51,324 nucleotides of DNA from the IMG/VR virus record IMGVR_UViG_3300027863_000005, positions 1-51,324 of that record; one strand, 5' to 3'. Position numbers and translations under genes: made by a program. The DNA comes from a virus. Below, piece by piece: positions 128 through 51,324 of the stretch (its first letter is position 1; each line of letters starts with the position of its first letter). A model generated the notes under the pieces. That model saw only the letters and a list, made by a program, of their open reading frames with translations. It was not told the origin of the DNA and did no database searches.

Positions 128-265
128 GAAGGGGGTCAGGCTGTGCTGGAGTATATTGCTGTCATCGGTCTGATTGCCCTGGTGTTCTTCTTGGCGGCCT
201 CCTGGTTGTTGGGGGACCCGGGGATTCTGGAGCGGGTCAGGTCTGCGCTCCAGATTATCCCGTAG
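2..265 (+). CDS. Small membrane protein with Flp-pilin-like motif, 3' part of the junction-spanning ORF
   Basis: Same frame as 51133 (position 1 is the third base of a codon). Contains GG-QAVLEY followed by a roughly 20-residue hydrophobic helix. Confidence 0.6.
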   Translation, partial: AVEAFWDELVVLSDPRRDYVPVRAVRMALEAARGVKETVAKAEGGQAVLEYIAVIGLIALVFFLAASWLLGDPGILERVRSALQIIP

Positions 266-427
266 CCTGACCGTCTGCAAATAACCGTATCTGGGAGGTG
301 GTCGGCAATTGTAGGTTGGGGGTTTGCGGCCCCCTGGCGGTGCCATCGGGCAGGCGGTGGCACTGCCAGTAAAACACATCAGAAAAAAACTGCGGTCGCC
401 TGCCCGGCCGCAGAATTCACGAATGAG

Positions 428-452
428 CCGCCAGGCACCGGCGGGCTTTTTT
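428..452 (+). terminator. Weak candidate rho-independent terminator
   Basis: CCGCC-aggcacc-GGCGG stem followed by gcTTTTTTg. The stem is only 5 bp. Confidence 0.3.
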
Positions 453-689
453 GTTGCAGATTACCCGGCTGCCAACGCTCTGCAGGGCAGAGCAAGCGGC
501 GGGGACAGCAAAAGCATCAAGAATTCTGACCAAAATCCCGGCTGAATTTGGCCAAAGAATTCGGCCGGAAGCGGGGCCAGCATCAACGGGTCTGACGCTG
601 GCCTTTTTCAAAAAGGTGACCAGAAGTAAAAAAGAAGAAACCCGGGAAGAAGCCCGGACAGAATTGGCCCACCACAGGAGGAAGAAAAA

Positions 690-1793
690 ATGAAAAAGAG
701 ACTGGGCGAACTCAGGCTGGAAACCAGCCTGAAAACATACATCAAGGCTGGAATCCCCGTAATCATCTGGGGGCCCCCGGGCGTGGGCAAGACGGCTGCG
801 GTTTACGCCACGGCCCGCCGGATGGAGGCGAAACAGGTCGTGGTTATCGCCTCCATCCGGGAACCGGTTGACTTTCTTGGGGTTCCTGTCCCTGACCCCA
901 ATCGGGCGGTGTTCCATTATGCTGCGCCCGACTGGGCAGCGAAAGTCAGGGAGTGGTCAGATGAGGGTCACCATGTTCTGGTGGTGTTTGACGACCTGGT
1001 CACTGCCAGAACTGAGGTGACCAATGCTCTGCTCCGGGTCATCCTGGAGCGAGTAGTCGGCGAAATAGAATTAGGGGAGAACGCCCATATCATCGCAACA
1101 GCCAACCCACCTGAGATGGTGGGTGGCTTTCCTATTTCGCCTGCGCTGTCAAACAGATTTGGTCATCTGCACGTTGAGGTAACAGCCCAGTTCATCAGGG
1201 ACTGGTGCGACCAGTTCCCGACATATTGGGGCAGCGAACCGACTCTTGCAGTGGACCCGAATGAGTGGCGGCTGGCAAGAGCGCTGGTCGCCACATTCAT
1301 CCGCTCCCGCCCCCAACTGCTGTTCAAACACATGGAGGGTGAACTTGCTTTCCCCAGCCCCCGTTCGTGGGACTTCGTTTCTCGCGTCCTGGCGGCTGCG
1401 GACGGTTTTGACTTCCAGGCCGTAGCAGGGCTGATTGGAGAGCCGGCCGCAACAGAGTTTGAGGCCTGGTTCAACGAGATGGACCTGCCGTCCCCTGAGG
1501 AGATTCTTGCCAATCCAGCAATTGTCCTCCGCCTGGAGAGAACAGACCAGAAGTTCGCTGCCATCACCGCCACGGTTGCACTGGTCTGCGGTCTACCGCC
1601 GAAGGAGGCGGCAAAGCACTGGATGGCAGCGCAATCCGCTGTCAATCTGCTGGCGGAGAATGGCGACATAGACATCGCCATGCCGTCGGCAGTACGGCTG
1701 GCGGAGTACTACTTCAAGCGGGGGCTGGGAATCCTGCCGGGCATTAGCCTGGCAGAACGTCTCATCGCTCCCATCCGCGAGACCGGTCTGTGA
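690..1793 (+). CDS. MoxR-like AAA+ ATPase (AAA_5 type)
   Basis: Walker A GPPGVGKT, Walker B VLVVFDDL, sensor-1-like IIATANP, ALSNRFG (the aLLdRF motif of MoxR ATPases). RBS CAGGAGGAAG upstream of ATG 690. Confidence 0.85.
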   Translation: MKKRLGELRLETSLKTYIKAGIPVIIWGPPGVGKTAAVYATARRMEAKQVVVIASIREPVDFLGVPVPDPNRAVFHYAAPDWAAKVREWSDEGHHVLVVFDDLVTARTEVTNALLRVILERVVGEIELGENAHIIATANPPEMVGGFPISPALSNRFGHLHVEVTAQFIRDWCDQFPTYWGSEPTLAVDPNEWRLARALVATFIRSRPQLLFKHMEGELAFPSPRSWDFVSRVLAAADGFDFQAVAGLIGEPAATEFEAWFNEMDLPSPEEILANPAIVLRLERTDQKFAAITATVALVCGLPPKEAAKHWMAAQSAVNLLAENGDIDIAMPSAVRLAEYYFKRGLGILPGISLAERLIAPIRETGL

Positions 1794-1808
1794 TTGAAGG
1801 GGGCAAAG

Positions 1809-2957
1809 ATGAACGAGACGCTGGAAAAAATCCGCGCGGCCCGCGCGGCCCTGGTCAGGAAGCGGCCATATATGGCACAGGCCATCATCAGGCCGGTGGT
1901 CGTCACCGACCAGGTGCCAACAATGGCCGTGGACCAGGACTGGAATATGTACGCCAACACCGATTTCGTGGCCAGCATCAGCCTGCCCGAACTGGCAGGC
2001 GTCGTTTACCACGAAGCCCTTCACCTGGTCTTGGACCACGCCAGGCGGGGGCAAATGGCGGTTCCCCACTTCGGCAAGGAAGTATGGGGGCTGGCCACAG
2101 AACTGGAGATAAACTCCCGTATCTTGTCGGAGGGTTTCCCCCTGCCGGGGGACCCTCCGACTCCACAAAAATGTGGCTTCCCAGAAGGCCTCACAGCGGA
2201 AGAGTATGCAGAACTTCTATCAAGGAAGCAGAGTAAACAGAAGACAGGCAGCCAGAGCGCCGACGAAGGGTCAGGAGTGGACGGCATCCCCAGGCCCTGG
2301 GAAATTGGCTCCCCTCTTGAGCCCATTGACCCTGAGGCGGCAGTCAGGACAATAGCGAGGTCTGTACTGGAAGCCAGAAAGACCGAGAGCCCGGCCGCAG
2401 GCACCGTGCCCGGCCACCTGGTCAGGTGGGCCGAAACCGTGCTCAAAGTAAAAGCGGATACTGTCCAGGCTCTGGTGCAACGCTTTGCATCTACCCTCTC
2501 CTCTTTGGGGATGGCCCCAACCTGGATGCGGACCAACCGCAGGGCCGCATGGACCAGCCTGCGCATCCCCGGTCACCAGGGGAAAAAGGTCCACATCGCC
2601 ATCGTGCTGGACACATCCGCCAGCATGACAGACGACGATGTGGCTCGCGGGGTGCGGCTGGTAACACAACTGGCCAGCAGTGCCGGGGCGGAAGTGGACG
2701 TCCTCTGCGTTGACGCAGAGGTCCACTCTGTCCAGCGGGGCGTGACCGGCACAACGAAGATTACACCTGTCGGCGGCGGGGGTACCGACATGAGAGTTGG
2801 CATAGAGGAAGCCGCCAGGCTGTCCCCGGACGTCATCGTGGTCTTTACGGACGGTGAAACACCCTGGCCGGAAAAACGGCCAGCAAAGGCAGTCATCGTC
2901 GCCCTGACCGCAGATAACGATGTGCCACCCTGGGCACAGAAAGTTGTCATCAAGTAA
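1809..2957 (+). CDS. VWA-domain protein with N-terminal HExxH metallopeptidase-like domain (DUF2201-type MoxR partner)
   Basis: HEALH (VVYHEALHLVLDH) in the N-terminal half. MIDAS-like DxSxS (IAIVLDTSASM) in the C-terminal half. ATG 1809 follows GAAGGGGG; the ORF-track start at 1794 is TTG. Confidence 0.8.
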   Translation: MNETLEKIRAARAALVRKRPYMAQAIIRPVVVTDQVPTMAVDQDWNMYANTDFVASISLPELAGVVYHEALHLVLDHARRGQMAVPHFGKEVWGLATELEINSRILSEGFPLPGDPPTPQKCGFPEGLTAEEYAELLSRKQSKQKTGSQSADEGSGVDGIPRPWEIGSPLEPIDPEAAVRTIARSVLEARKTESPAAGTVPGHLVRWAETVLKVKADTVQALVQRFASTLSSLGMAPTWMRTNRRAAWTSLRIPGHQGKKVHIAIVLDTSASMTDDDVARGVRLVTQLASSAGAEVDVLCVDAEVHSVQRGVTGTTKITPVGGGGTDMRVGIEEAARLSPDVIVVFTDGETPWPEKRPAKAVIVALTADNDVPPWAQKVVIK

Positions 2958-2969
2958 GCAGGGGGAAAA

Positions 2970-3740
2970 ATGGGCATCAGAGCAAGACAGGCCCGACAAG
3001 TGCTGTCAGTACTCCTGGACGCTGCCACCAATGCGTTAACACCAACCTGGCCATTAGTCAGGCCTGATATTGACCAGATGGAAATCGGCCTGCCAAGACT
3101 GGCCAGGCGGGTTCTCTGGCCCGACAAAGACCACTACGACAGAGCAGTGGTGGTGGATGACCGGTCATCCCATAGCGTCCATCTGATGGATGACCACCTG
3201 GAAACACTGGTCAGCATCCAAAGGGTCAGAAAGGCCATTGCTTCCTGTCAGAAAGCAATGGACAACGCGATGAAGCGGGCAGCAATCCTTCTCGACTCTG
3301 CTCCTGAAGCAAAGAGAAGGCTGGAAAGCGAGTTAAATGCCCTCCTTCTTGCTGGTGCAGAACTGCCCGATGTGCGGGCTGACCATAGACTGCTTCTCCC
3401 CCTTGCATGGAGAATCAGCAAGTTGAAGCGACTCAGCCTGACCCAGGGTATGGTTGCCAGACTGGTGACCGGGTTGGTCACCAGCCAGATAATGCATGAG
3501 GTGGACCTGAATATTAAATTGAGTTATGGGTATTTGGTCTGCACGATTGTGTGTGAATATTACAAACTCGGACTGACACTCAAGCCGCCAAAAATTGCAG
3601 TCACTCTGAATGGCCTCACCGTCGGTGACCCGTTCAAGGAACTGCCCGTAATAGCAAAGTCTGTCCCAGAGCCCTACTGGGCAGTCAAAGCAATGGATTT
3701 CCTGGACCAAATTCTGGAGAATTTACAGGAGGAAGAGTGA
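2970..3740 (+). CDS. WP-motif paralogue 1 of 10 (unknown function)
   Basis: PTWPL...RRVLWPD near the N-terminus; central LNALLLAGAELP...LLLPLAW; C-terminal NLQEEE. RBS AGGGGGA. Confidence 0.8.
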   Translation: MGIRARQARQVLSVLLDAATNALTPTWPLVRPDIDQMEIGLPRLARRVLWPDKDHYDRAVVVDDRSSHSVHLMDDHLETLVSIQRVRKAIASCQKAMDNAMKRAAILLDSAPEAKRRLESELNALLLAGAELPDVRADHRLLLPLAWRISKLKRLSLTQGMVARLVTGLVTSQIMHEVDLNIKLSYGYLVCTIVCEYYKLGLTLKPPKIAVTLNGLTVGDPFKELPVIAKSVPEPYWAVKAMDFLDQILENLQEEE

Positions 3741-4510
3741 TGAACCTGTGGAAGGAACTGGAACTTGCCGCTGCAGCAGCAACGTGTTTCTTCTTCCCGA
3801 ACCCGCCAGTGGGCAAACTGCCCGACAAAAGGCAGTTGTCAGCCCGTTTTCACTGGCCGGGCCACCAGCGCTCGTCAACCCGGCCAGGAATCGCGCTGAC
3901 AGTCGTTGCGGACGAAAGCGGGAATGTCCTGCCCGGCTTGCTGGAATTCGTGGACGATTTTGACCGCGACGCGATGCTCTCTGCCATTGACGAATGCTAT
4001 GCAATCGCAGAAAGGCGGCGGGAAGAAAGCCGTCAGATGGCGGAGCAGGCCCGGCAGGAACTGGATGCACTCCGGAAAACCGTGAAGTTCGGCCTGCTGG
4101 CCGGGATTGTGCCGGAAAACTATGCCATCGCAATGGAAGATAACGACTGGCTTGGCATCGCAGCCACGTTCATCGTGGTGGAGCAGGTGCGACGCCTCAG
4201 CGCAAAAGCCCGGGGTGCCTGGCCAATCTTCATGGTATGGCCAGATGCTTACATGCTCCCATGCACCAACGCCGAACTGCTTCTCCATTTCAGAGGCGAT
4301 GACTACCCCAGCCAGACGGCTTTCCGCTTTGACATCACCAGACCACCGATTTACGAAATTATCTACCATCCACCGCTCTGGACGCCATCCGGCATCCTGG
4401 ATGTGCTGAGCCGCCTCGGCCTTCTGCTGGCCTCTGATGAGCCACCTGAGTACGCAGACCCGGTGACTGCTATCGGGTCCAGCAACTGGCCCAGATGGTA
4501 TGAATGGTGA
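3740..4510 (+). CDS. WP-motif paralogue 2 of 10 (divergent)
   Basis: ARFHWPG and central FGLLAGIVP. ATG 3740 overlaps the stop of paralogue 1 (TGATG) behind CAGGAGGAAG. First WP motif replaced by FFPNPP. Confidence 0.7.
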   Translation: MNLWKELELAAAAATCFFFPNPPVGKLPDKRQLSARFHWPGHQRSSTRPGIALTVVADESGNVLPGLLEFVDDFDRDAMLSAIDECYAIAERRREESRQMAEQARQELDALRKTVKFGLLAGIVPENYAIAMEDNDWLGIAATFIVVEQVRRLSAKARGAWPIFMVWPDAYMLPCTNAELLLHFRGDDYPSQTAFRFDITRPPIYEIIYHPPLWTPSGILDVLSRLGLLLASDEPPEYADPVTAIGSSNWPRWYEW

Positions 4511-4614
4511 AATTGCAGTGACAGCCAGTGGAGAACTTGTGCTCCTATCACGGGCCTGATGCCTGAGAGCCCAGCCATAAATTGGCCGAATTTTCCGCAG
4601 CCTGGAGGAGAGAG

Positions 4615-5400
4615 ATGGTGGAAGAACTTGTGGAAGAATTTGCGAACTTGCTTCGGGAGTATGTCCGCCCGGTCTGGCCAGCCGTTGAGCCTGTCTGGCC
4701 AGAACAGCCGATAGAGGTGGGAGAAAACCTCATCTGGCCAGGCCCGCCGGGGCTCGCAGTACTTGAGTTTGTGGACGGCCTGGCCGTTGATAACGTCCGT
4801 GGTGTGCTGGCCGTTGACACCGGGTGGGTGCTGGGACCCACCTCCCTGCCACTGAACCCACTCCGACACCGGCTTGACCACCGCCTTCTCCACGCCATTT
4901 CCTGGCTCCGCCTGGCAATTGACCAGAAGAAAGTCACGTCAAAAGAGAAGGCCGCCCAGCACCCCAAACTGACCAGGCGCATTCGCACTCTCTATGAAAC
5001 TGCTGTTATCGCCGGCATCGTGCCGGCCCAGGCTCTGCCCGGCCCAGCCGCCGCCTGCGCGGCACTTGTGGCATTTCACGAGACAGTAAAATCTGTCTGC
5101 GCGGCGTGCCACAATGCCACTGCCACGCCGCCATGGCTTCCAGTCTCTCCAACACCAGAGTGGTGCCCCGCACAGAAGAACCGGCTTGGCAGCCCGGTCA
5201 CCCGGTTCGGCAATTGGGGCTCTGTTTCCCTCTCCCTCTGCAGATTTTATTTTAAGTCGCCGACCTTCAGCACCGGCGCACCAGAAACCACCTGGCGCCG
5301 GTACATCGGAGTCGGGACACCACGCTCTGCCTCAGCGGTGGTAAATGCCATCCTGCGCGAGAAGGAAAGGTGGGAAGCATGCATCGTCGGCAAACGCTGA
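4615..5400 (+). CDS. WP-motif paralogue 3 of 10 (atypical C-terminal half, possibly degenerate)
   Basis: RPVWPAVEPVWPEQ...LIWPG and TAVIAGIVP present. After about residue 150 the sequence is Pro/Ser/Trp/Cys-rich and lacks the family C-terminus. It is the only member with non-coding gaps on both sides. ATG 4615 follows GGAGGAG; the track start at 4582 is TTG. Confidence 0.55.
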   Translation: MVEELVEEFANLLREYVRPVWPAVEPVWPEQPIEVGENLIWPGPPGLAVLEFVDGLAVDNVRGVLAVDTGWVLGPTSLPLNPLRHRLDHRLLHAISWLRLAIDQKKVTSKEKAAQHPKLTRRIRTLYETAVIAGIVPAQALPGPAAACAALVAFHETVKSVCAACHNATATPPWLPVSPTPEWCPAQKNRLGSPVTRFGNWGSVSLSLCRFYFKSPTFSTGAPETTWRRYIGVGTPRSASAVVNAILREKERWEACIVGKR

Positions 5401-5451
5401 TTCCAGAAAGCCGGAAAGCGACACGGACACCTGAAGACATGGAGGTGCAGA

Positions 5452-6312
5452 ATGGCAAACGGTACCAGGTTCGTTGAGTTCTCCCCGCTCTCAATCGTCA
5501 TCATCCGCGAATTCCAGGACCACGCGAAAAAACTCTCACTCCTGCTCAGGGCCTGGCCGCCGATTCAACTGAAACTGGACGGGGGCGGCCAGTTCGTCCT
5601 CGGCAGGATTGAAGAGTACGATACATACGAAGTGCGCTGGCCTGCAACCAGCGGAACAACCAGCGACGACACGGCATTCGCTGTGTCCCATATCACGCTG
5701 ACCCGCCCGGACGGGCACACAAGAATTGACGCAGTGGACAAACTGATGAACTGCCGGGAGGTCTGCCCGGACATCATTATCGCGGCAATCAAGTACTGCA
5801 GCCAACTCATTGAAAAAGCGGAAAAGAAACGGGCAGAAACCAGCCAGGAACTCAGCCAACTTAAGGCCGAGTTGGACCACCTGCGGCTCGCCGGGCTGGT
5901 ACCCGCAAAACCCAATGAGAACGAACTGCTGTACCCTGTGGCTCACGCGTTGCTGGCCGCCAGGGATGGCAAATACACCAGCCAGTCGGTCAGGAAAATC
6001 GTCACAGACGCACTTGACGGTCACGGCGTCGCCATCACGTCTGTGACCGTGTCTCGCCCTGGTTCTCGGTTCCTCCGCATTGTTGTCCATGCTGGCAAAG
6101 TCTGCATCCACATCACAGTGGATGAACTGCACCCGTCCGGAGAAGCCTACGCCTACATCGTCCTGCCTGACGAGATGCTCTCATCTGCCATAGACGAATA
6201 TGACATCCGTTCTGTGGCTGGCGCCCTCGCCAGGGTGCTCTTTACCCCCGGCGAGGCACTGCTGGCAAAGAATGTCGCCGCTGCATTGGTCACATACCAG
6301 GAGGAGCAATGA
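5452..6312 (+). CDS. WP-motif paralogue 4 of 10
   Basis: LLRAWPP...EVRWPA; central LRLAGLVP...LLYPVA; C-terminal YQEEQ. RBS GGAGGTGCAGA. Confidence 0.8.
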   Translation: MANGTRFVEFSPLSIVIIREFQDHAKKLSLLLRAWPPIQLKLDGGGQFVLGRIEEYDTYEVRWPATSGTTSDDTAFAVSHITLTRPDGHTRIDAVDKLMNCREVCPDIIIAAIKYCSQLIEKAEKKRAETSQELSQLKAELDHLRLAGLVPAKPNENELLYPVAHALLAARDGKYTSQSVRKIVTDALDGHGVAITSVTVSRPGSRFLRIVVHAGKVCIHITVDELHPSGEAYAYIVLPDEMLSSAIDEYDIRSVAGALARVLFTPGEALLAKNVAAALVTYQEEQ

Positions 6313-7088
6313 AACGCCTTGAGAAACTGTATGAACTGGCCCAGGAAATCACCGTCCGGCGCTGGCCACCTGTCTACCCAACATTGCCAGCGCAGGACTT
6401 CACCATCGGCTATTACGTTGACGGAAGTCCGGTAGTCTGGCCGTCGCGCCAACTGGACTTCCCGGACGCATGGTTAAGTGTCACTGTCGGAACGCACGCT
6501 GTAGAAATCTGCATGGAGTGCACCGCCGATGTTGAATGGGACGATTCCGCCATCAATGCGGCGGTCAGGTTTGCCGAGAACACTGTCAGAGACCTGGGGG
6601 AAACGTGGAGAGCCAGGCTGAATATCGGCGACATTGCAGAACTTGAAAAGCAAGCCAACGCGCTCCTGCTCTCCGGTCTTATCCGCCCGGACTGGCGGCC
6701 GGGGTTCAACCTCCTGGCCCCGGCAGTCTGGGCACTACGCCGGCTGGACAGGCATTGGGGTGGTAATGACGTCAGGCGTGCTGCGCTTGGCGCACTGCAG
6801 GGCGGCCTGCGATTCAGTGGTGTGTCTGTGTTCTTCAACTACGACCACAGGCCTGCAACGACCCAGTTTTTTATCGCAGATAACCTGTCAGTCCAATTCC
6901 TGGGCACATGGGACTCGGCACGTGTTTCTGTAGTGCTATCCATCGGACAGGACGACCAGGAATTCATCTGCGACTTCACACAGGACGTATTGTCCAATGT
7001 CGTTGCTGAAGTCTGCAGGCTCCCGTATGAAGTAACTGCCCTGGCCGAGACCGCCAACCAACTTTACGCCTTACTGGAGGGGAGATGA
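6309..7088 (+). CDS. WP-motif paralogue 5 of 10
   Basis: VRRWPP...PVVWPS; central ANALLLSGLI...LLAPAV. ATGA overlap with paralogue 4. Confidence 0.8.
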   Translation: MKRLEKLYELAQEITVRRWPPVYPTLPAQDFTIGYYVDGSPVVWPSRQLDFPDAWLSVTVGTHAVEICMECTADVEWDDSAINAAVRFAENTVRDLGETWRARLNIGDIAELEKQANALLLSGLIRPDWRPGFNLLAPAVWALRRLDRHWGGNDVRRAALGALQGGLRFSGVSVFFNYDHRPATTQFFIADNLSVQFLGTWDSARVSVVLSIGQDDQEFICDFTQDVLSNVVAEVCRLPYEVTALAETANQLYALLEGR

Positions 7089-7876
7089 CAGTTGAAGAGT
7101 TTCTCGCTGCCACACTTGAAGTCGTAAAACTCCGGTGGCCCGTTGGCAGGCCATCGCCCGGCCTGCCCATACAGAGGGCCATTGGTACGTATCGCAGCGC
7201 AGACATACTGTGGCCCATCAGAGGGGCCACACTGGACAGGCTGGACCTCGTGGAGGTCAATGGCGTCCCGTACCATATCAGCAAGTTCGCTTCGTACGTT
7301 GACGAATTCTCTCTGTCGTGTGCAGCATCAGCCTGCCTGGGCCTTGCTCAAAATCTTGACTTCCAGTCCGCCAGGCTCCGCGAGATGGAGCACTCCAGCC
7401 TTGAACTCCTTGAGAATGAAGCAACGGCCGTACTGCTCACTTACCCCGACGCCGCACAGGTGCCCCAGTGCCTTGTCCCGCTTCTCCCTGTTGCTGCAAG
7501 TATTCGTGCACTCCAGGAACTGGAAGTCCCGGCAAGCAGAATCGCCGGGCTGATAACCGCAATCCTGGGCCGTGAAATCTACCCCTCGCGCGTCAGGATT
7601 GAGTCCACCATAACGGGAACAGAAGCGACTATCAATGTCTGGCAAAATTTCAACTTCGGGTGGGCAGTGCTCCACACCAGCATGCTCTACACGGACCGCG
7701 TGAGAGTGTACATGACAGCGCTCCTGCCAGAAGGCCGGGAGTATTCGCTTGACGCAGGGCTTCCGACAGTGGTGCGTCACCTCGCTGAACTTGCGCCTTC
7801 ACCAGATGAAGCGGTATCACTCCTGAACAGACTCAACTACCTGATTGCATACTTTAGCCAGGAGGAGGGGGAATGA
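7085..7876 (+). CDS. WP-motif paralogue 6 of 10
   Basis: KLRWPV...DILWPI; central ATAVLLTY...LLPVAA; C-terminal SQEEGE. ATGA overlap. Confidence 0.8.
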   Translation: MTVEEFLAATLEVVKLRWPVGRPSPGLPIQRAIGTYRSADILWPIRGATLDRLDLVEVNGVPYHISKFASYVDEFSLSCAASACLGLAQNLDFQSARLREMEHSSLELLENEATAVLLTYPDAAQVPQCLVPLLPVAASIRALQELEVPASRIAGLITAILGREIYPSRVRIESTITGTEATINVWQNFNFGWAVLHTSMLYTDRVRVYMTALLPEGREYSLDAGLPTVVRHLAELAPSPDEAVSLLNRLNYLIAYFSQEEGE

Positions 7877-8670
7877 ATACCGAGACCAGTACGCCGCTTT
7901 CTACGCTGCTTTCGGCGGCCAGGGAAGTGATGAAACCCCGCTGGCCAAAGCCAGACGTCATCGCATATCACCTGCCAGGCGAACGTGATGTATCGCGTAC
8001 GCCCACAAGAATTCTCTGGCCTGGTTACAAGGAGCGCATGGACCTGCATGGCATACTGTACTTCAGAGCAGGCACCATTGTTGCTATTGAGAACGCAGAG
8101 CACCTTGAACCAATGCTGGACAGCAAATCGCTGCTGGCGGCCGCCAGGGAGTGTAGCAACCTGGCCGCAAAACTGGACGGCATGGCACAGACCATTCGTG
8201 ACCGCCAGAAAGCCGAACTGGCCTGCCTGGTTGAAGAGGCATCTGCGCTGGTGCTGGCTGGGCTTGCGAATGGGCTGGAGGGGGCCTTTTTCCCGCTTCT
8301 CCCGGTTGTCCATCGCATGCTGACCACAACATACGCACCCCCAGATGCAATCAGGAAACTTGCATCTGACATCATCATGCGCAGGCACCCGCTGAATGTC
8401 CGTGTGGAAAGCAGGCCTGAAAGCACCAGCCACTCCATAGACATCACCGTCTTTCAGGCCGGGGATGCAAGCCTGCACATGCTGGCAGAGGTGCACCGGG
8501 AGACAGCAAGGATTTCATGGCAGGTAGTTACGCAGAGCGGTGTCAGGTTAATCCGTGGCGATGCATCTGGGGCAATCGCTGTTGGCGATGTGTGCAGAAC
8601 ACCTCATGAGGCGCTTACACTAAAGATGCGCCTGGATACCATCATTCCGTACTGCAGAGGTGAAAGATGA
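7873..8670 (+). CDS. WP-motif paralogue 7 of 10
   Basis: KPRWPK...RILWPG; central ASALVLAGLA...LLPVV. ATGA overlap. Confidence 0.8.
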   Translation: MNTETSTPLSTLLSAAREVMKPRWPKPDVIAYHLPGERDVSRTPTRILWPGYKERMDLHGILYFRAGTIVAIENAEHLEPMLDSKSLLAAARECSNLAAKLDGMAQTIRDRQKAELACLVEEASALVLAGLANGLEGAFFPLLPVVHRMLTTTYAPPDAIRKLASDIIMRRHPLNVRVESRPESTSHSIDITVFQAGDASLHMLAEVHRETARISWQVVTQSGVRLIRGDASGAIAVGDVCRTPHEALTLKMRLDTIIPYCRGER

Positions 8671-9473
8671 AACAGATGATTGACGAATTCACAAAAGTTG
8701 CACACGAGGCTGCAAGGTGGGTGTGGCCCGCTGTGCATGTTCCACTGCCCCAAAGGAGAAGAATCGGAGGCACGCCCAAGCCGTCGTCGCTGTTCTGGCC
8801 TGGGCGGGAAGGACGTGACGGCCTGGAATATGTGACTGAACTGGGGGCTGCAAATTACACCTACTGGGTCGGCAATGCCATCGTCGCACAATATGCAACA
8901 CCGGATGCCATCACGACTGCAATAGACGAATGCAGGAAGGTTATCGCCGCAACCCAACATCAGTTGAGACTTGCAAGAGAGAGCGATGCGTACAGGCGCC
9001 TTGAACAGATGACGGACACTCTTGTTCTTTCTGGGGTAGTATCCCAAGACGCCCTCAGGGACCTGGGGGAGTTCAGGCTGCTTGTCGTCCCATGCTATTT
9101 GATGCACCGTATCCGCGCCAATGATGAACTGGATGGTCTACGAGTCAGAAGGCTCGTGGATGCAGCCATAAACGGCGAGATTGGGGACATAGAGGTCACC
9201 GTCTCGCGCGAAAACGGCGAACTCAGACGGGTGGTGGCCCGGGTCTACAAAGAAATCTGCGTGGTATTTCACTTCTGGGGCAGAACCTGGACATCGTACG
9301 CAGACTGCTGGTTTGGCATCCGGAACGATTTAGAAATGCGGGCATTCGGAGACTCGTACAGCGACCAGACCTGGCAACTTTCGCATGTATGCGAATCACC
9401 AGAAGAGGTTATTGAACTTATCAACGTTCTTGCAGAAGTGGGGCGGCTGCTTGAAATTGACACGGAGGATTAG
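8667..9473 (+). CDS. WP-motif paralogue 8 of 10
   Basis: RWVWPA...SLFWPG; central TDTLVLSGVV...LLVVPC; C-terminal EIDTED. ATGA overlap. Confidence 0.8.
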   Translation: MKQMIDEFTKVAHEAARWVWPAVHVPLPQRRRIGGTPKPSSLFWPGREGRDGLEYVTELGAANYTYWVGNAIVAQYATPDAITTAIDECRKVIAATQHQLRLARESDAYRRLEQMTDTLVLSGVVSQDALRDLGEFRLLVVPCYLMHRIRANDELDGLRVRRLVDAAINGEIGDIEVTVSRENGELRRVVARVYKEICVVFHFWGRTWTSYADCWFGIRNDLEMRAFGDSYSDQTWQLSHVCESPEEVIELINVLAEVGRLLEIDTED

Positions 9474-9474
9474 C

Positions 9475-10257
9475 ATGACGAAACTGGTGGATGCTGTGGT
9501 ACAGTCATTCATCAAGACGTGTATCCGTGCGTCTGAGCGCCCATGGCCTGAAGTTCGCGTGACGCCGGTTGCAACAAGAGCAATCGGCGAACAGATTTAC
9601 TGGCCATCACAGAACGGCTTACTACCGGACCGCCTCGCGTACGTTGACATCCGCAGTAAAAACGGCCATGAAACGCGCCACGTCACCGCAGTGGCAGACC
9701 GCATTGACCCCAACGCAGCCTTCTATGCGGAAGCAGAATGCAGAAAGTTCATTGATAATATCGTGGCCGAACTTACGCTGGTAAAAGCGACAGACCCGAA
9801 CTACGCTGCACTGATGAGTGAGGCCAATGCCATGGTGCTCGCCGGTGTTGTTCAGGTTGACCTGAAAGACAGACTGCCACTCGCTCCCTGCGCGTTTCTT
9901 GTTGAGAAAATCTCAACAGAATGGCCGGGATGGGCGGTGCGCAGATTGGTTGACCGCCTTCTGGATAGCACGGTCATGGCCATGGCTCTCTCTGTTGATG
10001 TTGATATGCTGCCAGGCGGAAAGGCAGAAGCCGTAACAGTAAGACTCAACGGCGACCTTGCCGTACTGTTTCGTATGTGGGAGCACAGAGGGTGGAGCGG
10101 GGTAGCGTCCACACTGTTCGTCGTGGGCGACGAGAACCCGCAGGGATACGATGAAGTGACCAGAGCAATTGCATACCACTGCCCCTCCCCGGCTGATGCC
10201 ATTTCCTTCAAATACGCCCTCTCAACCATGCTGGAAATCCTGGAGGAGGAAGAATGA
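9475..10257 (+). CDS. WP-motif paralogue 9 of 10
   Basis: ERPWPE...QIYWPS; central ANAMVLAGVV...LPLAPC; C-terminal LEILEEEE. ATG 9475 follows ACGGAGGAT. Confidence 0.8.
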   Translation: MTKLVDAVVQSFIKTCIRASERPWPEVRVTPVATRAIGEQIYWPSQNGLLPDRLAYVDIRSKNGHETRHVTAVADRIDPNAAFYAEAECRKFIDNIVAELTLVKATDPNYAALMSEANAMVLAGVVQVDLKDRLPLAPCAFLVEKISTEWPGWAVRRLVDRLLDSTVMAMALSVDVDMLPGGKAEAVTVRLNGDLAVLFRMWEHRGWSGVASTLFVVGDENPQGYDEVTRAIAYHCPSPADAISFKYALSTMLEILEEEE

Positions 10258-10988
10258 GGCTCGCGCTGACCGTAATCACCACAAGGTATTTCCCTCAGCC
10301 TGACAGAGAGCAATGGCAGAAACTCCGGTCAGAATTGGCCCCGAAACCCATCAGGTTTGGGAAAGGGACCTGGCCAGCCGACGGGGACTGGCCAGAAGCC
10401 CTGTTCTACGTTCAGTCTGGCGGCCGCAAGATACACATCAGCCAGTTTGACGATGACCCGAAATTCGCCACCGAAATCGCTGCCGCCCGCCGGTGGTGCA
10501 TAGAAACCCTCTCTCCGCGAGTTGAGCAGGCGTCGGCAGAGATTGCGCTGGCCCAGGAAAAGTACCGCAACGCCATCATCCGGGAAGCGGAAGCAATCGT
10601 CCTGGGCGGACTTGCAACGTCGCAGAAAAAACTCTATATCTGGCTGCCACTTGCAGTAAGGATGATGAGGCTGTACGAGGTCAACAGCATGGAAGCGTTG
10701 AATGCTCTCTCACCACAGTACTGGCCTGAAGGCGAGGTGGCCGCAACGGTCAACATTACTATCCACAAGCGCCTTTGCTTCATGGCAAGGGCACTGCGCG
10801 ACGCCGACAGCATAGTCAGGCACTTCTACATAAAAGAAGGGGATACATTATACGCCCCGGTGTCAGTCAACAGGATTGCATACTGGCTGCATGAGAACAT
10901 GCCAGCCACGCAAATCTGTGACTACATCGGCATCGCCAGCGCGATGCAGAGCCTTGACAGTATCCTCGCAAAATGCTGTACGGGGTAA
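10254..10988 (+). CDS. WP-motif paralogue 10 of 10 (divergent N-terminus)
   Basis: GKGTWPADGDWPE; central AEAIVLGGLA...IWLPLAV. ATGA overlap with paralogue 9. Confidence 0.7.
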   Translation: MRLALTVITTRYFPQPDREQWQKLRSELAPKPIRFGKGTWPADGDWPEALFYVQSGGRKIHISQFDDDPKFATEIAAARRWCIETLSPRVEQASAEIALAQEKYRNAIIREAEAIVLGGLATSQKKLYIWLPLAVRMMRLYEVNSMEALNALSPQYWPEGEVAATVNITIHKRLCFMARALRDADSIVRHFYIKEGDTLYAPVSVNRIAYWLHENMPATQICDYIGIASAMQSLDSILAKCCTG

Positions 10989-11168
10989 TGGTCCTGGAAA
11001 GTGAGGCTGTTTGTGGAGGCAAGCAGCAGTCACCCCGGTCACCTTGAGAAACAGCGAGGGCGTTGAGGCACCCATAGCCGTTGTTTCGCTGCCGGGCAAA
11101 TCCCGGGGGAACCCGGCTTATAATTGGCAAAAAATGCCCTTGCACTGACAATGCACTCAGAGCGCAAT

Positions 11169-11198
11169 TTGCCAAAGGCGAATCCGCGATGCTATAAT
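11169..11198 (+). promoter_or_regulatory. Sigma70-type promoter for 11217 gene
   Basis: TTGCCA (11169-11174), 18-bp spacer, TGcTATAAT (-10 at 11193-11198). About 19 nt upstream of the RBS AGGAGGTG. Confidence 0.6.
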
Positions 11199-11216
11199 CT
11201 AACCAGGAGGTGAAAA

Positions 11217-11648
11217 ATGAAAATCGGAGACATCCTGCCACAAGACTTGCTGACCATCATTGCAGACACAGAACAGGCACGGGCAAGTGCGAATGAACTT
11301 GCTGATGCGATTCAGCGCGACGGGCACGAACTCGGCATCTATGTGGTGGAAGTCGGAGTCAAGCGCCCGTCCAAGACCGGGATGTGGAAGAAACAGTATC
11401 CAATCCCTGCCCACTTAGGCAACTGGGTCAAAGTACAACCTGGCTCCAGACTGTTCAAAAGGTGGGTTGGCCTGGCCAGGAAGCGTGGGCTCTGGCTCGC
11501 CTGGGTTAACGCAATCATCCCAGACGACAAGATGTCCTGGCTAAAACCGGCAGCAGTGCGTAAAAAAACGAGAGGCGCCCGGCAAAGCCGGACGCCCCTC
11601 GTCCCACAGGAGGCGCAAGATGAACAACCCAGCAGGCACCGGATGTAA
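11217..11648 (+). CDS. Hypothetical protein with basic C-terminus
   Basis: ATG after CCAGGAGGTGAAAA; 143 aa; no motif recognised. Confidence 0.65.
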   Translation: MKIGDILPQDLLTIIADTEQARASANELADAIQRDGHELGIYVVEVGVKRPSKTGMWKKQYPIPAHLGNWVKVQPGSRLFKRWVGLARKRGLWLAWVNAIIPDDKMSWLKPAAVRKKTRGARQSRTPLVPQEAQDEQPSRHRM

Positions 11649-11748
11649 CAGGTAATAACCGAAAGATATTTGAGCAATTATTACCTGCTACCTCGCCCGT
11701 CTGCCAGTAAGTATACCACAGCCTGGACAAAAGTCAACTGGTAAACAT

Positions 11749-11774
11749 GACAATACCACCAAAGTGGTATTGTC
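11749..11774. repeat. Perfect 11-bp-stem hairpin/palindrome (gacaataccac-caaa-gtggtattgtc)
   Basis: Arms 11749-11759 and 11764-11774 are exact reverse complements. No T-run follows, so it is not called a terminator. Confidence 0.7.
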
Positions 11775-11815
11775 GTCCTACCCAGAAGTAGTATGGCAAA
11801 CTCTTGATAAACGCT

Positions 11816-11843
11816 TGACAAAAAGCCTAAATGTGCAATACTT
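11816..11843 (+). promoter_or_regulatory. Candidate sigma70-type promoter (upstream member of a tandem pair)
   Basis: TTGACA (11816-11821), 16-bp spacer, TGcAATACT (extended -10; hexamer matches 4 of 6). Confidence 0.45.
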
Positions 11844-11891
11844 TTAAACGCCCGACCAACCATATAAGACCGAAGTAAAATAAAATATGTA

Positions 11892-11911
11892 GGGGGGGGG
11901 AGTGGGGGGGG
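11892..11911 (+). repeat. G9-AGT-G8 homopolymer pair (G-quadruplex-capable and slippage-prone)
   Basis: aGGGGGGGGGagtGGGGGGGGaaaaattccccaaaaaaa read directly, between the two promoters. Confidence 0.9.
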
Positions 11912-11943
11912 AAAAATTCCCCAAAAAAACTATAAAGAAGGGC

Positions 11944-11972
11944 TTGACAAAACAAAAACTTTGTGGTATAAT
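11944..11972 (+). promoter_or_regulatory. Consensus sigma70-type promoter for 12048 operon
   Basis: TTGACA (11944-11949), 17-bp spacer, TGgTATAAT (-10 at 11967-11972). An 8-bp-stem hairpin gtaggcaa-cca-ttgcctac (11986-12004) lies in the leader. Confidence 0.8.
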
Positions 11973-12047
11973 AATTGTGAACAAAGTAGGCAACCATTGC
12001 CTACCCAAACTTGACCGTTTACCCAATATTCTCACAGGAGGTGCGCG

Positions 12048-32474: not shown

Positions 32475-33800
32475 TTAGCAAATGCGCTCAACAGGCTCAA
32501 TTACATAAATGGCATCGGTACCGGTAACCACCCAGGCAGGACCGCTTGTCGCGACCACGCGCTCGCCGGGGTTGTCTGACAGGGTGTACCATGTCATGCC
32601 ACCGTCCTCAGTGACGTAGACTCCGTCGCCAACAGCGACACCGAACACGCCGTCGCCAGAGAACTGCATAGATGTGATTCCGGAGCCGACAACGCCAATC
32701 TCATCCACGTCAAGACCTGGGGCCCAGGCATAAGCAGTAGTGGCACTCATTGCCACCAGTCGCTTGGCCCAGTTCATGGACGCGGTCACGAAGTTCTGGG
32801 TACCAAGCGTGATGGAGGTGAACTGAGCGCCACTCCCATAAATGACCAGACCATTGTTTCCAACCCCGTAAACAATGCGGCCGTCGGTAGTCAGGTCATT
32901 CAGGCTTGCATAGGAGCCAACAAGTTCCCAGGCCAGGCCTCCGTTCACGCTTCTGTGAATCGTACCGTCCGACGCCCCTGCGTACAAGGTACCATCATTT
33001 GTCCGGACGATACCTCTCACGCTGGCGCCGTTGGCAGTAGAAAGGCTCGTCTTTGAGAAAGTGCTGCCGTTGGTAGAACTTGCAACCACTGCCGGGGCCG
33101 TGGTGCCCCCAGTCCCTCCGACCAGATACCTGCGGCCAATCCTGGTGACAAACGTTGGCTGGAAGTCCAGCGCTGTCGTGTTCCAGGACTGCCCACCATT
33201 CGTTGAGTACCGGAACGAGTGGTCAGTGCCATCGGAGACAATGGTGTACAACCTGGACAAGTAACCAACGGAGGGAGCGCAGGCAGAGCCACATGACTCC
33301 GGCTCGGCGCCAGCCATGACGACATCGGCAAGAGCAGCAATCTGGCGCTCAGCAGGAGGGCCCCAAAGAACATGCCCGGTGAATGCGAACGCGATGTTGG
33401 CCTCAACCACGTTGGTACTCGGCTCAAGCGAGGTAGGGGCCGTAATCGTCTTGTCGCCAACCTCGCCTCCCGTCAGAATGATTGCAGACGAGTAGTTTTC
33501 CGGGTTGGCGCGTTCGCCAGTCATTGAGAAGTTGACCCGGAGCGCGACAGGGCCGCAAGTCATCCGAAGCAACTGGTCACGGGTGGTTTCCAGACGCAAA
33601 TGAAGAGTGGTAGTCACATTGCCGGGAGCCCCGCGAATAACCCGCTGAGGCACCCAAGACCCGTAATCGGGGCCGGGCCCAAAAACTGTGGTGAAGTCCC
33701 CGGCTGGCAGGGTAATGTCGTCCGCACCAACGCAGACGAACTGCCAGGAGGACCCGGGGACTGCAAGAAAGACACTGGCTTCTGATTGAGTGAGCGGCAT
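32475..33800 (-). CDS. Putative major tail (tube) protein fused to a BNR/Asp-box repeat domain
   Basis: Sits immediately upstream of the chaperone and tape measure. RBS AGAGGTG. C-terminal two thirds carry STNGGQSW, SVNGGLAW, TEDGGMTW and SSTNGSTF. Confidence 0.5.
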   Translation of the reverse strand: MPLTQSEASVFLAVPGSSWQFVCVGADDITLPAGDFTTVFGPGPDYGSWVPQRVIRGAPGNVTTTLHLRLETTRDQLLRMTCGPVALRVNFSMTGERANPENYSSAIILTGGEVGDKTITAPTSLEPSTNVVEANIAFAFTGHVLWGPPAERQIAALADVVMAGAEPESCGSACAPSVGYLSRLYTIVSDGTDHSFRYSTNGGQSWNTTALDFQPTFVTRIGRRYLVGGTGGTTAPAVVASSTNGSTFSKTSLSTANGASVRGIVRTNDGTLYAGASDGTIHRSVNGGLAWELVGSYASLNDLTTDGRIVYGVGNNGLVIYGSGAQFTSITLGTQNFVTASMNWAKRLVAMSATTAYAWAPGLDVDEIGVVGSGITSMQFSGDGVFGVAVGDGVYVTEDGGMTWYTLSDNPGERVVATSGPAWVVTGTDAIYVIEPVERIC

Positions 33801-36284: not shown

Positions 36285-36947
36285 TTAACCTCCAATCATT
36301 TTCTGGGCCAGGATGCCAGCAGGAGTCACCTCGCGCCCAATCGGAGTGACTGACGGACGGGGTGAAATTTCCAGCGCTTTTTGAGCAGATTCCTGAGCCT
36401 GGCGGACTTGCTCCTTCAGCGCTGTAACGCTTTCAGCCAACTCCTTGACCTGCCCTTCAAGCCCTTCAAGCCGTGAAACCACCTCAGCAATGCTCTTCTC
36501 TTCGCCATTAGTGGGAGGGGCAGGATACGGGTAGCCATAAACAGAACCGCCCTCTTTAGCCATCTTTTCGGCAATTTGGTCTGCCCGCTCCTTGATGGCC
36601 TTCGGGGCAATCCGGGCAAGGATAGCCGCCAGCGCCCCCCACTCGCTTGGCTTGGAGATGCGAACGACAGTAGCAAGCGCCCGCAGATATTCCTGCACGC
36701 GCTCGCTCACTTCTTCCTCGGCAAGTGCCGCAATCTGACGTCCAAACGTGGATGCAGACTTCCGGCCCTCCTCCAGTTCGCCAGTAACTGACTTGCTGTC
36801 CAGGCCTGCCTCATCAAGGGCACGCTCAAGTCGGTCGGCTGCCGCCAGAAGTTCCTCCAATTCCTTTGCAAAGACGTCGGAGGAAACTTCCTCAAGGGTA
36901 ACATCATCTTCGTCTGTGGTCACTTCCTCAAGTTCGTCTTTCGTCAT
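36285..36947 (-). CDS. Scaffolding protein
   Basis: 220 aa, very acidic and helical (MTKDELEEVTTDEDDVTLEE...). Immediately upstream of the capsid gene. Confidence 0.65.
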   Translation of the reverse strand: MTKDELEEVTTDEDDVTLEEVSSDVFAKELEELLAAADRLERALDEAGLDSKSVTGELEEGRKSASTFGRQIAALAEEEVSERVQEYLRALATVVRISKPSEWGALAAILARIAPKAIKERADQIAEKMAKEGGSVYGYPYPAPPTNGEEKSIAEVVSRLEGLEGQVKELAESVTALKEQVRQAQESAQKALEISPRPSVTPIGREVTPAGILAQKMIGG

Positions 36948-51132: not shown

Positions 51133-51324
51133 ATGAAGAGAAAGATGATGGATTGGAGACAGGTCGTCCAGGTTGCGGACGGCCTGCCGACCCAGGGGGC
51201 CGTAGAGGCCTTCTGGGACGAACTGGTGGTGCTATCGGACCCCCGCAGGGACTATGTCCCTGTGCGGGCTGTCCGGATGGCGCTGGAGGCCGCGCGGGGA
51301 GTGAAGGAGACAGTGGCCAAGGCC
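51133..51324 (+). CDS. Small membrane protein with Flp-pilin-like motif, 5' part (ORF continues across the contig junction into 128..265)
   Basis: ATG at 51133 preceded by ACAGGAGGTGCAGG. The frame is continuous with ORF 29..265 once the 127-bp overlap is collapsed. Joined product is about 109 aa: MKRKMMDWRQ...AEGGQAVLEYIAVIGLIALVFFLAASWLL... Confidence 0.6.
   Translation, partial: MKRKMMDWRQVVQVADGLPTQGAVEAFWDELVVLSDPRRDYVPVRAVRMALEAARGVKETVAKA
51198..51324. repeat. Terminal direct repeat, copy B (identical to 1..127)
   Basis: Same 127-nt string as 1..127. Confidence 0.97.

Follow-up and report, generated by a model that had tools for sequence, protein, structure and literature searches.

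What are ten consecutive, diverged paralogous genes for in a phage of little more than 51 kb, and what do the genes beside them say about their role? The DNA in question is IMG/VR virus record IMGVR_UViG_3300027863_000005, positions 1 to 51,324, referred to in its full length as the window. Its ends share an exact 127-bp overlap (1-127 and 51198-51324), so that the window represents a complete circular assembly of about 51.2 kb, and it encodes a tailed phage, with the large terminase, the tape-measure protein and others on the - strand. On the + strand, ten open reading frames (ORFs) of 244-286 aa, here named m1 to m10, run from 2970 to 10988 and fill 8019 bp, or 15.6% of the window. A sequence-only reading had singled them out as a tandem family built on a shared skeleton of Trp-Pro (W-P) and other motifs, had recognised no relatives and had proposed strong diversifying pressure. 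That reading overlooked that the array directly follows genes for a MoxR-type ATPase and a metallopeptidase-VWA protein. The array proteins, or WP proteins, also share an N-terminal domain with smaller proteins encoded next to the same pair of genes elsewhere. Gene neighbourhood and features of sequence and structure thus point to the array as a set of expanded, specialised clients or adaptors of a MoxR-VWA-peptidase machine, a reading to which we give a probability of roughly one half.

The two upstream genes form a pair of the phage N4 gp24/gp25 type (PHROG 1297 and 1314):

690-1793, + strand: MoxR-type AAA+ ATPase (N4 gp24-like), first gene of the unit; Pfam AAA_5 (5.7e-09) and AAA_3, PHROG 1297 (8.8e-44)
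1794-2957, + strand: zincin metallopeptidase with VWA domain (N4 gp25-like); Pfam DUF2201_N (2.2e-24) and DUF2201 (5.1e-19), tblastn features labelled 'N4 gp25-like'

The Walker A sequence GPPGVGKT and an hhhhDD motif are present in the consensus of the MoxR orthologues, and the zincin motif HEALH and the metal ion-dependent adhesion site (MIDAS; DTSAS...GGGTD...TDG) are invariant among four orthologues of the VWA protein. The true start of the VWA gene may be the ATG at 1809 (gene callers on identical contigs give 382 aa), and m1 begins 12 nt past its stop. The layout of MoxR, VWA and then array is kept in five lineages of the clade, namely the window, L003, L001/L008, L005 and L017, where L-numbers are labels of related loci or contigs. 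Outside this clade, the MoxR/metallopeptidase-VWA pair is present in at least 270 deposited phage genomes, N4-like and jumbo phages among them. A chaperone plus a peptidolytic role has been predicted for the pair of the group 2.2 jumbo phages, with no client named (Iyer et al. 2021, PMC7824862), and N4 gp24 and gp25 are middle genes (PMC4193335). Scanning genome contigs with the VWA protein returned only distant actinomycete chromosomal homologues, with no WP genes and no clue to the host.

The relationship among the ten ORFs was assessed by scoring each member against a hidden Markov model (HMM) of the remaining nine, with 60 other ORF segments of the window and 500 shuffled sequences as decoys. 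The members scored 21-89 bits and the best decoy no more than 13.0 bits, which establishes the ten genes as true paralogues and their common motifs as more than chance. Pairwise BLAST gives collinear matches of 22-29% identity, the top pairs being m8/m9 (76 bits) and m6/m7 (61 bits). The motif skeleton that had been aligned by eye is recovered in the ten-member alignment: the second W-P and the Pro of an L-x-P-x-A motif are invariant, and the first W-P, the Leu and Gly of an L-x-G motif (mostly LAG) and the Ala of an A..C helix are conserved at 90% or more. No ORF of the window outside the array scores with the family HMM, so that an eleventh member was not found. The members are as follows, the bit scores being those of the leave-one-out HMM:

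2970-3740, + strand: m1, 256 aa; 67.5 bits; L001 orthologue at 47% identity
3740-4510, + strand: m2, 256 aa; TGATG overlap with m1; first WP motif degenerate (FFP); 33.2 bits
4615-5400, + strand: m3, 261 aa from ATG 4615; 22.3 bits; dN/dS 0.18
5452-6312, + strand: m4, 286 aa; 54.5 bits; dS 0.71 against L003
6309-7088, + strand: m5, 259 aa; ATGA overlap with m4; 68.4 bits; dS 0.94 against L003
7085-7876, + strand: m6, 263 aa; ATGA overlap; 80.8 bits; 29% identity to m7 over 270 aa
7873-8670, + strand: m7, 265 aa; ATGA overlap; 72.5 bits
8667-9473, + strand: m8, 268 aa; ATGA overlap; 87.3 bits; 28% identity to m9 over 268 aa
9475-10257, + strand: m9, 260 aa; 89.1 bits; the member modelled by AlphaFold2
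10254-10988, + strand: m10, 244 aa, last member; 21.2 bits; orthologues in L001, L003 and L005

These coordinates bear out the ten same-strand ORFs of the sequence-only reading, and every overlap that it listed (TGATG at 3740, ATGA at 6309, 7085, 7873, 8667 and 10254) is present. Its statement that there is almost no intergenic DNA holds for most junctions, which overlap or abut (at m8/m9 a single base intervenes, TAG C ATG, 9471-9477), but not for m2-m3 and m3-m4, where there are true gaps of 104 nt and 51 nt. The start of m9 is corrected to ATG 9475, from 9385. That of m3 is most likely ATG 4615, because a GGAGG (at 4604) lies 6 nt before it and gene callers made the same 261-aa choice on identical contigs; TTG 4582, from which the frame is open, is less likely.

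Long spurious ORFs exist on both strands at 55-59% G+C and the scores of m2, m3 and m10 are weak, so it might be asked whether the array consists of decaying duplicates, or of non-coding artefacts of G+C-rich DNA with chance motifs. Such an origin would not account for a GGAGG-type ribosome-binding site before every member (10/10), for orthologues under purifying selection, for leave-one-out scores far above the decoys, for a structural model of very high confidence (a predicted local distance difference test score, pLDDT, of 94) or for the recovery of identical ten-gene arrays in several independent metagenomes. The leave-one-out HMM, the AlphaFold model and the selection data effectively refute it.

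The family remains without recognised relatives in the libraries searched, as the sequence-only reading had found without them: there was no match in Pfam, PHROGs, PADLOC, NCBIfam, the PDB sequences or the folds of the PDB and BFVD. When the ten proteins, 39 family members and the stand-alone WP proteins described below were compared with Pfam, PHROGs, PADLOC and NCBIfam, only scattered sub-threshold matches were obtained, none of them recurring; searched singly against Pfam, the 39 members touched 15 different sub-threshold families, each in one member only. A relationship to ternary complex associated domain 2 (TCAD2) of Pfam was considered and rejected, since m3 is the only one of the 39 to match and does so at 14.6 bits (E = 0.038) against a gathering threshold of 27 bits. 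The family profile found nothing below E = 0.1 among PDB sequences. An exhaustive hmmsearch of 1.84 billion representative proteins gave 27 matches at E <= 0.001, about 25 of which are proteins of 215-282 aa from arrays of the same kind, all in one hot-spring phage clade. Catalogued anti-defence and defence families gave no match in Pfam, PHROGs or PADLOC or by Foldseek, no dedicated anti-defence catalogue having been searched, and no paper on this partner family was found in the literature.

The AlphaFold2 model of m9, built from a 39-sequence alignment, has a mean pLDDT of 94.4 and a predicted template modelling score of 0.87. It begins with an N-terminal helix, two small hairpins with the W-P turns, a short helix and a long helical hairpin (79-122), and continues with two helices, a four-stranded sheet and two C-terminal helices. 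Foldseek found nothing significant for it (best E 0.065 in the PDB and 0.03 in BFVD, TM-scores <= 0.22), and the predicted fold, unmatched in the PDB or BFVD, appears to be previously undescribed.

No column of the family alignment reaches 75% conservation of a polar or charged residue, and the lack of a conserved polar residue argues for non-catalytic scaffolds. No member has a segment hydrophobic enough for a membrane helix, and the isoelectric point (pI) ranges from 4.75 to 9.1 across members. The ten proteins are thus predicted to be soluble, non-catalytic two-domain scaffolds with divergent surfaces. Among paralogues the N-domain is 21% alike and the C-domain 16%, the most divergent part being the sheet region 171-230, while within orthogroups both domains are ~50% conserved. 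The greater likeness of the N-domain fits a shared dock combined with a variable specificity.

The N-domain is also where the connection to other elements lies. A metagenome scan with the VWA protein led to a distant contig, L026, whose VWA protein is 35% identical. There, at least four ATGA-coupled genes of ~140 aa come after the MoxR/VWA pair and score 47 bits with the full-family HMM. These genes define a stand-alone WP family of 103 clusters (at least 103 proteins), none with a Pfam domain. HHalign matches this family to residues 9-127 of the array family with a probability of 97.5% (E = 8.7e-12, 116 columns), and the full-family HMM gives 15 bits or more on 71 of the 103 stand-alone proteins, the maximum of 1030 shuffles being 9.4 bits. 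By these profile comparisons, the N-terminal ~125 residues of the array proteins (the 'WP domain') are homologous to the stand-alone ~140-aa proteins. An AlphaFold2 model of a stand-alone protein (pLDDT 95.3) has the same N-terminal helix and hairpins and ends in a single 52-residue helix; its secondary structure agrees with that of the m9 model across the common part, and Foldseek found no match for it in the PDB. Both families have in common an N-terminal helix, an invariant W-P that follows a Pro-rich loop, and an A..(W)C helix that passes into a long one. Of the stand-alone motifs, the first W-P and AATAWCEAR are retained only in part by the array. Neither a tblastn of the stand-alone protein against phages and plasmids, which gave no match, nor a scan of IMG/VR with the stand-alone proteins, which confirmed no relative, extended the family. 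The full array family offers no stretch of sufficient conservation for a scan of the latter kind.

Upstream DNA is present for nine distinct stand-alone loci. In eight of these (L026/27, L032, L033/34, L035, L036, L038, L039 and L046) the WP gene either adjoins the stop of a DUF2201_N+DUF2201 gene or overlaps it, that gene itself coming after an AAA_5 MoxR gene; in the ninth, L057, the WP gene is placed between MoxR and VWA. Copy number per locus is 1, 3 or at least 4. A gene upstream of MoxR in some of the loci is conserved in a subset only and is absent from the window. The stand-alone loci are phage-like or plasmid-like, with a terminase among the neighbours. Type IV CRISPR-Cas genes (Csf3, Cas6), ArdC, AcrVA2-like, STIV B116-like, ParM-like and FtsK genes neighbour the WP genes of L032, L035 and L038, methyltransferase genes also occur near stand-alone loci, and one triad locus is in a metagenome-assembled genome of the Moorellaceae. 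Judged by its neighbours, the MoxR-VWA-WP triad is carried by plasmid-like and phage-like elements in thermophiles and anaerobes. On the IMG/VR contig L057, two ~234-aa genes that look similar by eye lie between MoxR and the WP-like gene (2141-3540), a hint that MoxR/VWA operons also take up other small sets of paralogues.

The client or adaptor reading can be put as a mechanism. The WP domain (~125 aa), in which a helix and two W-P turns are combined with small beta-hairpins and with an A..(W)C helix that continues into a long one, would be the conserved third part of a mobile-element module whose other parts are the MoxR AAA+ ATPase and the zincin-peptidase/VWA protein. In the hot-spring clade this third component would have gained a C-terminal alpha/beta domain and then have been duplicated into 10-13 specialised versions, co-transcribed with the ATPase and VWA genes and translated mostly by stop-start coupling. 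Each paralogue would dock on VWA/MoxR through the common N-terminal domain, and once docked it might be remodelled or cleaved, as a client, or might deliver a different bound target, as an adaptor, with the divergent C-terminal domain and surface providing copy-specific specificity. We infer a physical interaction with MoxR/VWA, a role as either client or adaptor, and a purpose in host takeover, counter-defence or assembly; an anti-defence or host-takeover role is possible. Should the adaptor version be correct, the array would offer a modular means of targeting proteins and would be of practical interest as such. Its most specific form, in which the 10-13 paralogues are interchangeable substrate adaptors that each hand a different host protein (defence or housekeeping) to the machine for unfolding or proteolysis, is a long shot, though it would amount to a programmable virus-owned system for targeted degradation in bacteria and would explain the N4 gp24/gp25-type pair.

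Several observations weigh against a partnership of this kind. The adjacency of genes is not the interaction of their products. Most phages with the MoxR/VWA pair have no detectable WP gene (N4-like and jumbo phages, Thermus phage phiFa, L009, L023/24/29 and most of 21 IMG/VR loci), so that the pair needs no WP proteins in general; the WP proteins appear to be tied to the pair, and not the pair to the WP proteins. In a quick neighbour-joining tree, the VWA proteins of WP-positive loci are not clearly monophyletic. Of the AATAWCEAR motif, which is strongly conserved in the stand-alone proteins, most array members retain just A...C (m10 keeps RRWC, which resembles the motif), and an ancestral contact could have been relaxed or lost after the expansion. 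Lastly, acidic C-termini might have been thought to serve as MIDAS ligands, but this idea was rejected: the tails (QEEE, EEGE, EEEE) coincide with the in-frame Shine-Dalgarno sequence (GGAGG) of the next gene, and m2, m3 and m10, which have no coupled downstream gene, are without them. Because they track the downstream GGAGG, they are not read as functional tails.

The history of the array bears on how its members might work. The contigs with the family are of hot-spring origin: one in SRR6049666, from Obsidian Pool in Yellowstone, matches the window at 100% identity across 19.5 kb, and relatives come from Great Boiling Spring in Nevada. Among deposited phages, no DNA-level match to the first 12 kb was found by megablast. 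All ten members have one-to-one positional orthologues, at 68-92% identity in L003 and at 44-56% in L001 and L005, and the tree of members resolves into ten clean orthogroups. Since the one-to-one orthology holds in relatives that are only 44-56% identical, the expansion is old and stable and predates these lineages. Copy number varies from 10 to 13 in relatives, with ten in the window and L003 and twelve plus a divergent thirteenth in L001/L008 and L005. The end members are swapped, the first being different in L017 and the last in L018, and the L001 orthologue of m2 is split into two ORFs. The array is thus a tandem multigene family in the sense of at least three adjacent same-strand paralogues whose copy number differs between relatives.

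Rates of substitution were estimated by the pairwise Nei-Gojobori method, some values being near saturation. Against L003, the closest lineage, the gene-wide ratio of non-synonymous to synonymous substitutions (dN/dS) is 0.18-0.28 for all ten members, compared with 0.10-0.16 for the MoxR, VWA and helicase genes and 0.11-0.31 for other phage genes of unknown function. Against L001, dN is 0.41-0.54 for the array and 0.23-0.27 for MoxR/VWA, a difference of about two-fold. The array evolves faster than its neighbour genes, under purifying selection. The strong diversifying pressure proposed from the sequence is not borne out, as the gene-wide ratios lie within the range of other unknown genes and the one-to-one orthologues are stable.

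The two-fold greater protein divergence might nevertheless be taken to mean that the WP proteins are independent host-takeover or anti-defence binders, each neutralising another host protein, whose adjacency to MoxR/VWA reflects nothing but shared early or middle expression. Non-catalytic proteins with divergent surfaces and pI, a variable copy number and cassette-style replacement of end members would suit such a role, as would the position of stand-alone loci among counter-defence-type genes (ArdC, AcrVA2-like, methyltransferases) on mobile elements. Typical arms-race loci, however, do not combine low dN/dS with stable orthology as this array does; the libraries searched contain no similar anti-defence or defence family; and without a functional link it is difficult to see why WP genes should recur in tight overlap beside or inside MoxR/VWA operons in elements so unlike one another. 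We therefore consider independent binders doubtful.

Synonymous divergence from L003 is uneven, at 0.7-1.2 for MoxR, VWA, m4, m5 and a 143-aa gene (11217-11648) and ~0.3 over the rest of the 20-kb arm. This mosaic (690-2957, 5452-7088 and 11217-11648) suggests recombinational replacement of segments between lineages. Exchange of the m4-m5 segment is awkward for another possible arrangement, in which the ten paralogues would combine during infection, as distinct subunits, into a single stoichiometric structure such as a ring, lattice or scaffold, put together with the help of MoxR/VWA and comparable to the rings of the proteasome or chaperonins. Membership is also flexible, with three extra members in relatives and different first and last members in L017 and L018, and stand-alone versions work as single copies. 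Yet much would be natural in a hetero-oligomer: stop-start coupling favours equimolar synthesis, gene order and one-to-one positional orthology are fixed across lineages ~50% identical, all members are under purifying selection, and the single 52-residue terminal helix of the stand-alone model would suit oligomerisation. MoxR/VWA systems, moreover, are established assembly chaperones. Weighing both sides, we think a hetero-oligomer rather unlikely.

The organisation of the operon agrees with co-transcription of the array with the MoxR and VWA genes, although promoters and expression timing are judged here from sigma70 consensus scans. The following features were noted:

428-452, + strand: terminator-like hairpin with T-run, from a consensus scan (weak evidence); likely upstream boundary of the unit
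11169-11198, + strand: strong sigma70-like promoter (11 of 12, extended -10), which starts the next unit; downstream boundary of the array operon
11815-11842 and 11944-11972, + strand: strong sigma70-like promoters, from a consensus scan

No sigma70-consensus promoter lies between the hairpin and 690. Inside 2970-10988 the best matches are 9 of 12, the minimum of the scan, and all sites of 10-12 of 12 lie after 10988. Most simply, 690-10988 is read as a single unit of ~10.3 kb with 12 genes, possibly of the middle class; the middle-gene status of N4 gp24/25 fits the absence of a sigma70 consensus promoter here. The gene-poor stretch 11100-12000 has near-consensus sigma70-like promoters with extended -10 on both strands (+ 11169, 11815 and 11944; - 11737), which look like an early-promoter or regulatory hub.

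Some other features of the genome may be recorded. A gene of 109 aa is cut by the window start and is intact on contig L043, and no tRNA genes were found in the window. Contig L041 (JGI 3300005573) is otherwise 100% identical but is without 829 bp (window 188-1016, so that the MoxR start is gone) and 270 bp in m4 (5940-6209); these deletions are either natural variants or assembly artefacts. In the structural arm, between the terminase/portal-side genes and the head genes, a 1626-aa polyvalent protein (36944-41824, - strand) has domains for an MBL-fold hydrolase, an ATP-dependent DNA ligase and two Dam-type N6-adenine methyltransferases, and is possibly a DarB-type anti-restriction protein that is packaged. 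A 441-aa protein of the tail region (32475-33800, - strand), with weak BNR/Asp-box and DUF6242-type matches, may be a beta-propeller that binds a receptor or glycan.

How does this array compare with systems already described? We know of no client or function for the phage MoxR/metallopeptidase-VWA pair, and the conserved, adjacent, non-catalytic WP family is a first candidate partner for this widespread and unexplained pair. N4 gp24/gp25 and the pairs of group 2.2 jumbo phages are of the same type as the upstream pair here, but no WP gene is detectable beside them; their predicted role is in virion assembly, without a named client (Iyer et al. 2021, PMC7824862). Thermus phage phiFa (L019, 12318-16336) has a MoxR/VWA pair and, a few genes on, four mutually similar genes of ~250-360 aa (23, 25, 26 and 27; phiFa_23 and phiFa_25 are 31% identical over 281 aa), and is thus a second thermophilic phage with a paralogue set near such a pair. 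Unlike the array, the phiFa paralogues are not contiguous with the VWA gene, and they were rejected as WP relatives at an HHalign probability of 0.05%.

The VMAP or ternary MoxR-vWA conflict systems of multicellular bacteria (Kaur et al. 2020, PMC7159879) likewise combine MoxR, vWA and a variable, diversified third component. Those systems belong to cells and are of a defence type. Their effector and STAND/VMAP domains were not found in the phage array, the sub-threshold TCAD2 match of m3 being the sole trace. The array family thus belongs neither to TCAD2 nor to the VMAP ternary systems, nor to any anti-defence family described so far.

Large eukaryotic viruses carry expanded adaptor families, such as the ankyrin/F-box and BTB-Kelch proteins of poxviruses and MGF360/505 of African swine fever virus, which hijack host ubiquitin ligases. 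As in the array, their members are diverged, lie in tandem and combine a common docking part with a more variable one, and copy number differs between relatives. In the phage, by contrast, the presumed machine is encoded by the virus itself, the genome is only 51 kb, and ten core copies are stably inherited. A ten-fold, anciently fixed expansion that takes up 16% of a 51-kb genome is to our knowledge unusual for small phages, and it implies a function that must matter greatly to phages at 60-80 °C.

The closest parallels are perhaps the MoxR/VWA pairs that act on dedicated partners: CbbQO on Rubisco, NorQD on nitric oxide reductase and BchI/BchD on BchH. CbbQ-CbbO, NorQ-NorD, RavA-ViaA, BchI-BchD-BchH and CobS-CobT-CobN share with the phage locus a three-part logic, in which a MoxR ATPase (AAA_5) and a VWA protein whose MIDAS is intact are joined by a neighbouring partner gene, here one that is co-transcribed and whose product is non-catalytic. 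The phage locus differs from them in that its VWA protein has an N-terminal zincin peptidase, in that the module is carried by phages and mobile elements, and in that the partner has a new fold, predicted with very high confidence although none of the libraries searched contains the family. A 10-13-fold multiplication of the partner is not known to us from any MoxR system. By analogy, then, the array may best be filed beside the MoxR/VWA systems with a dedicated third protein (CbbQO, NorQD and the chelatases).

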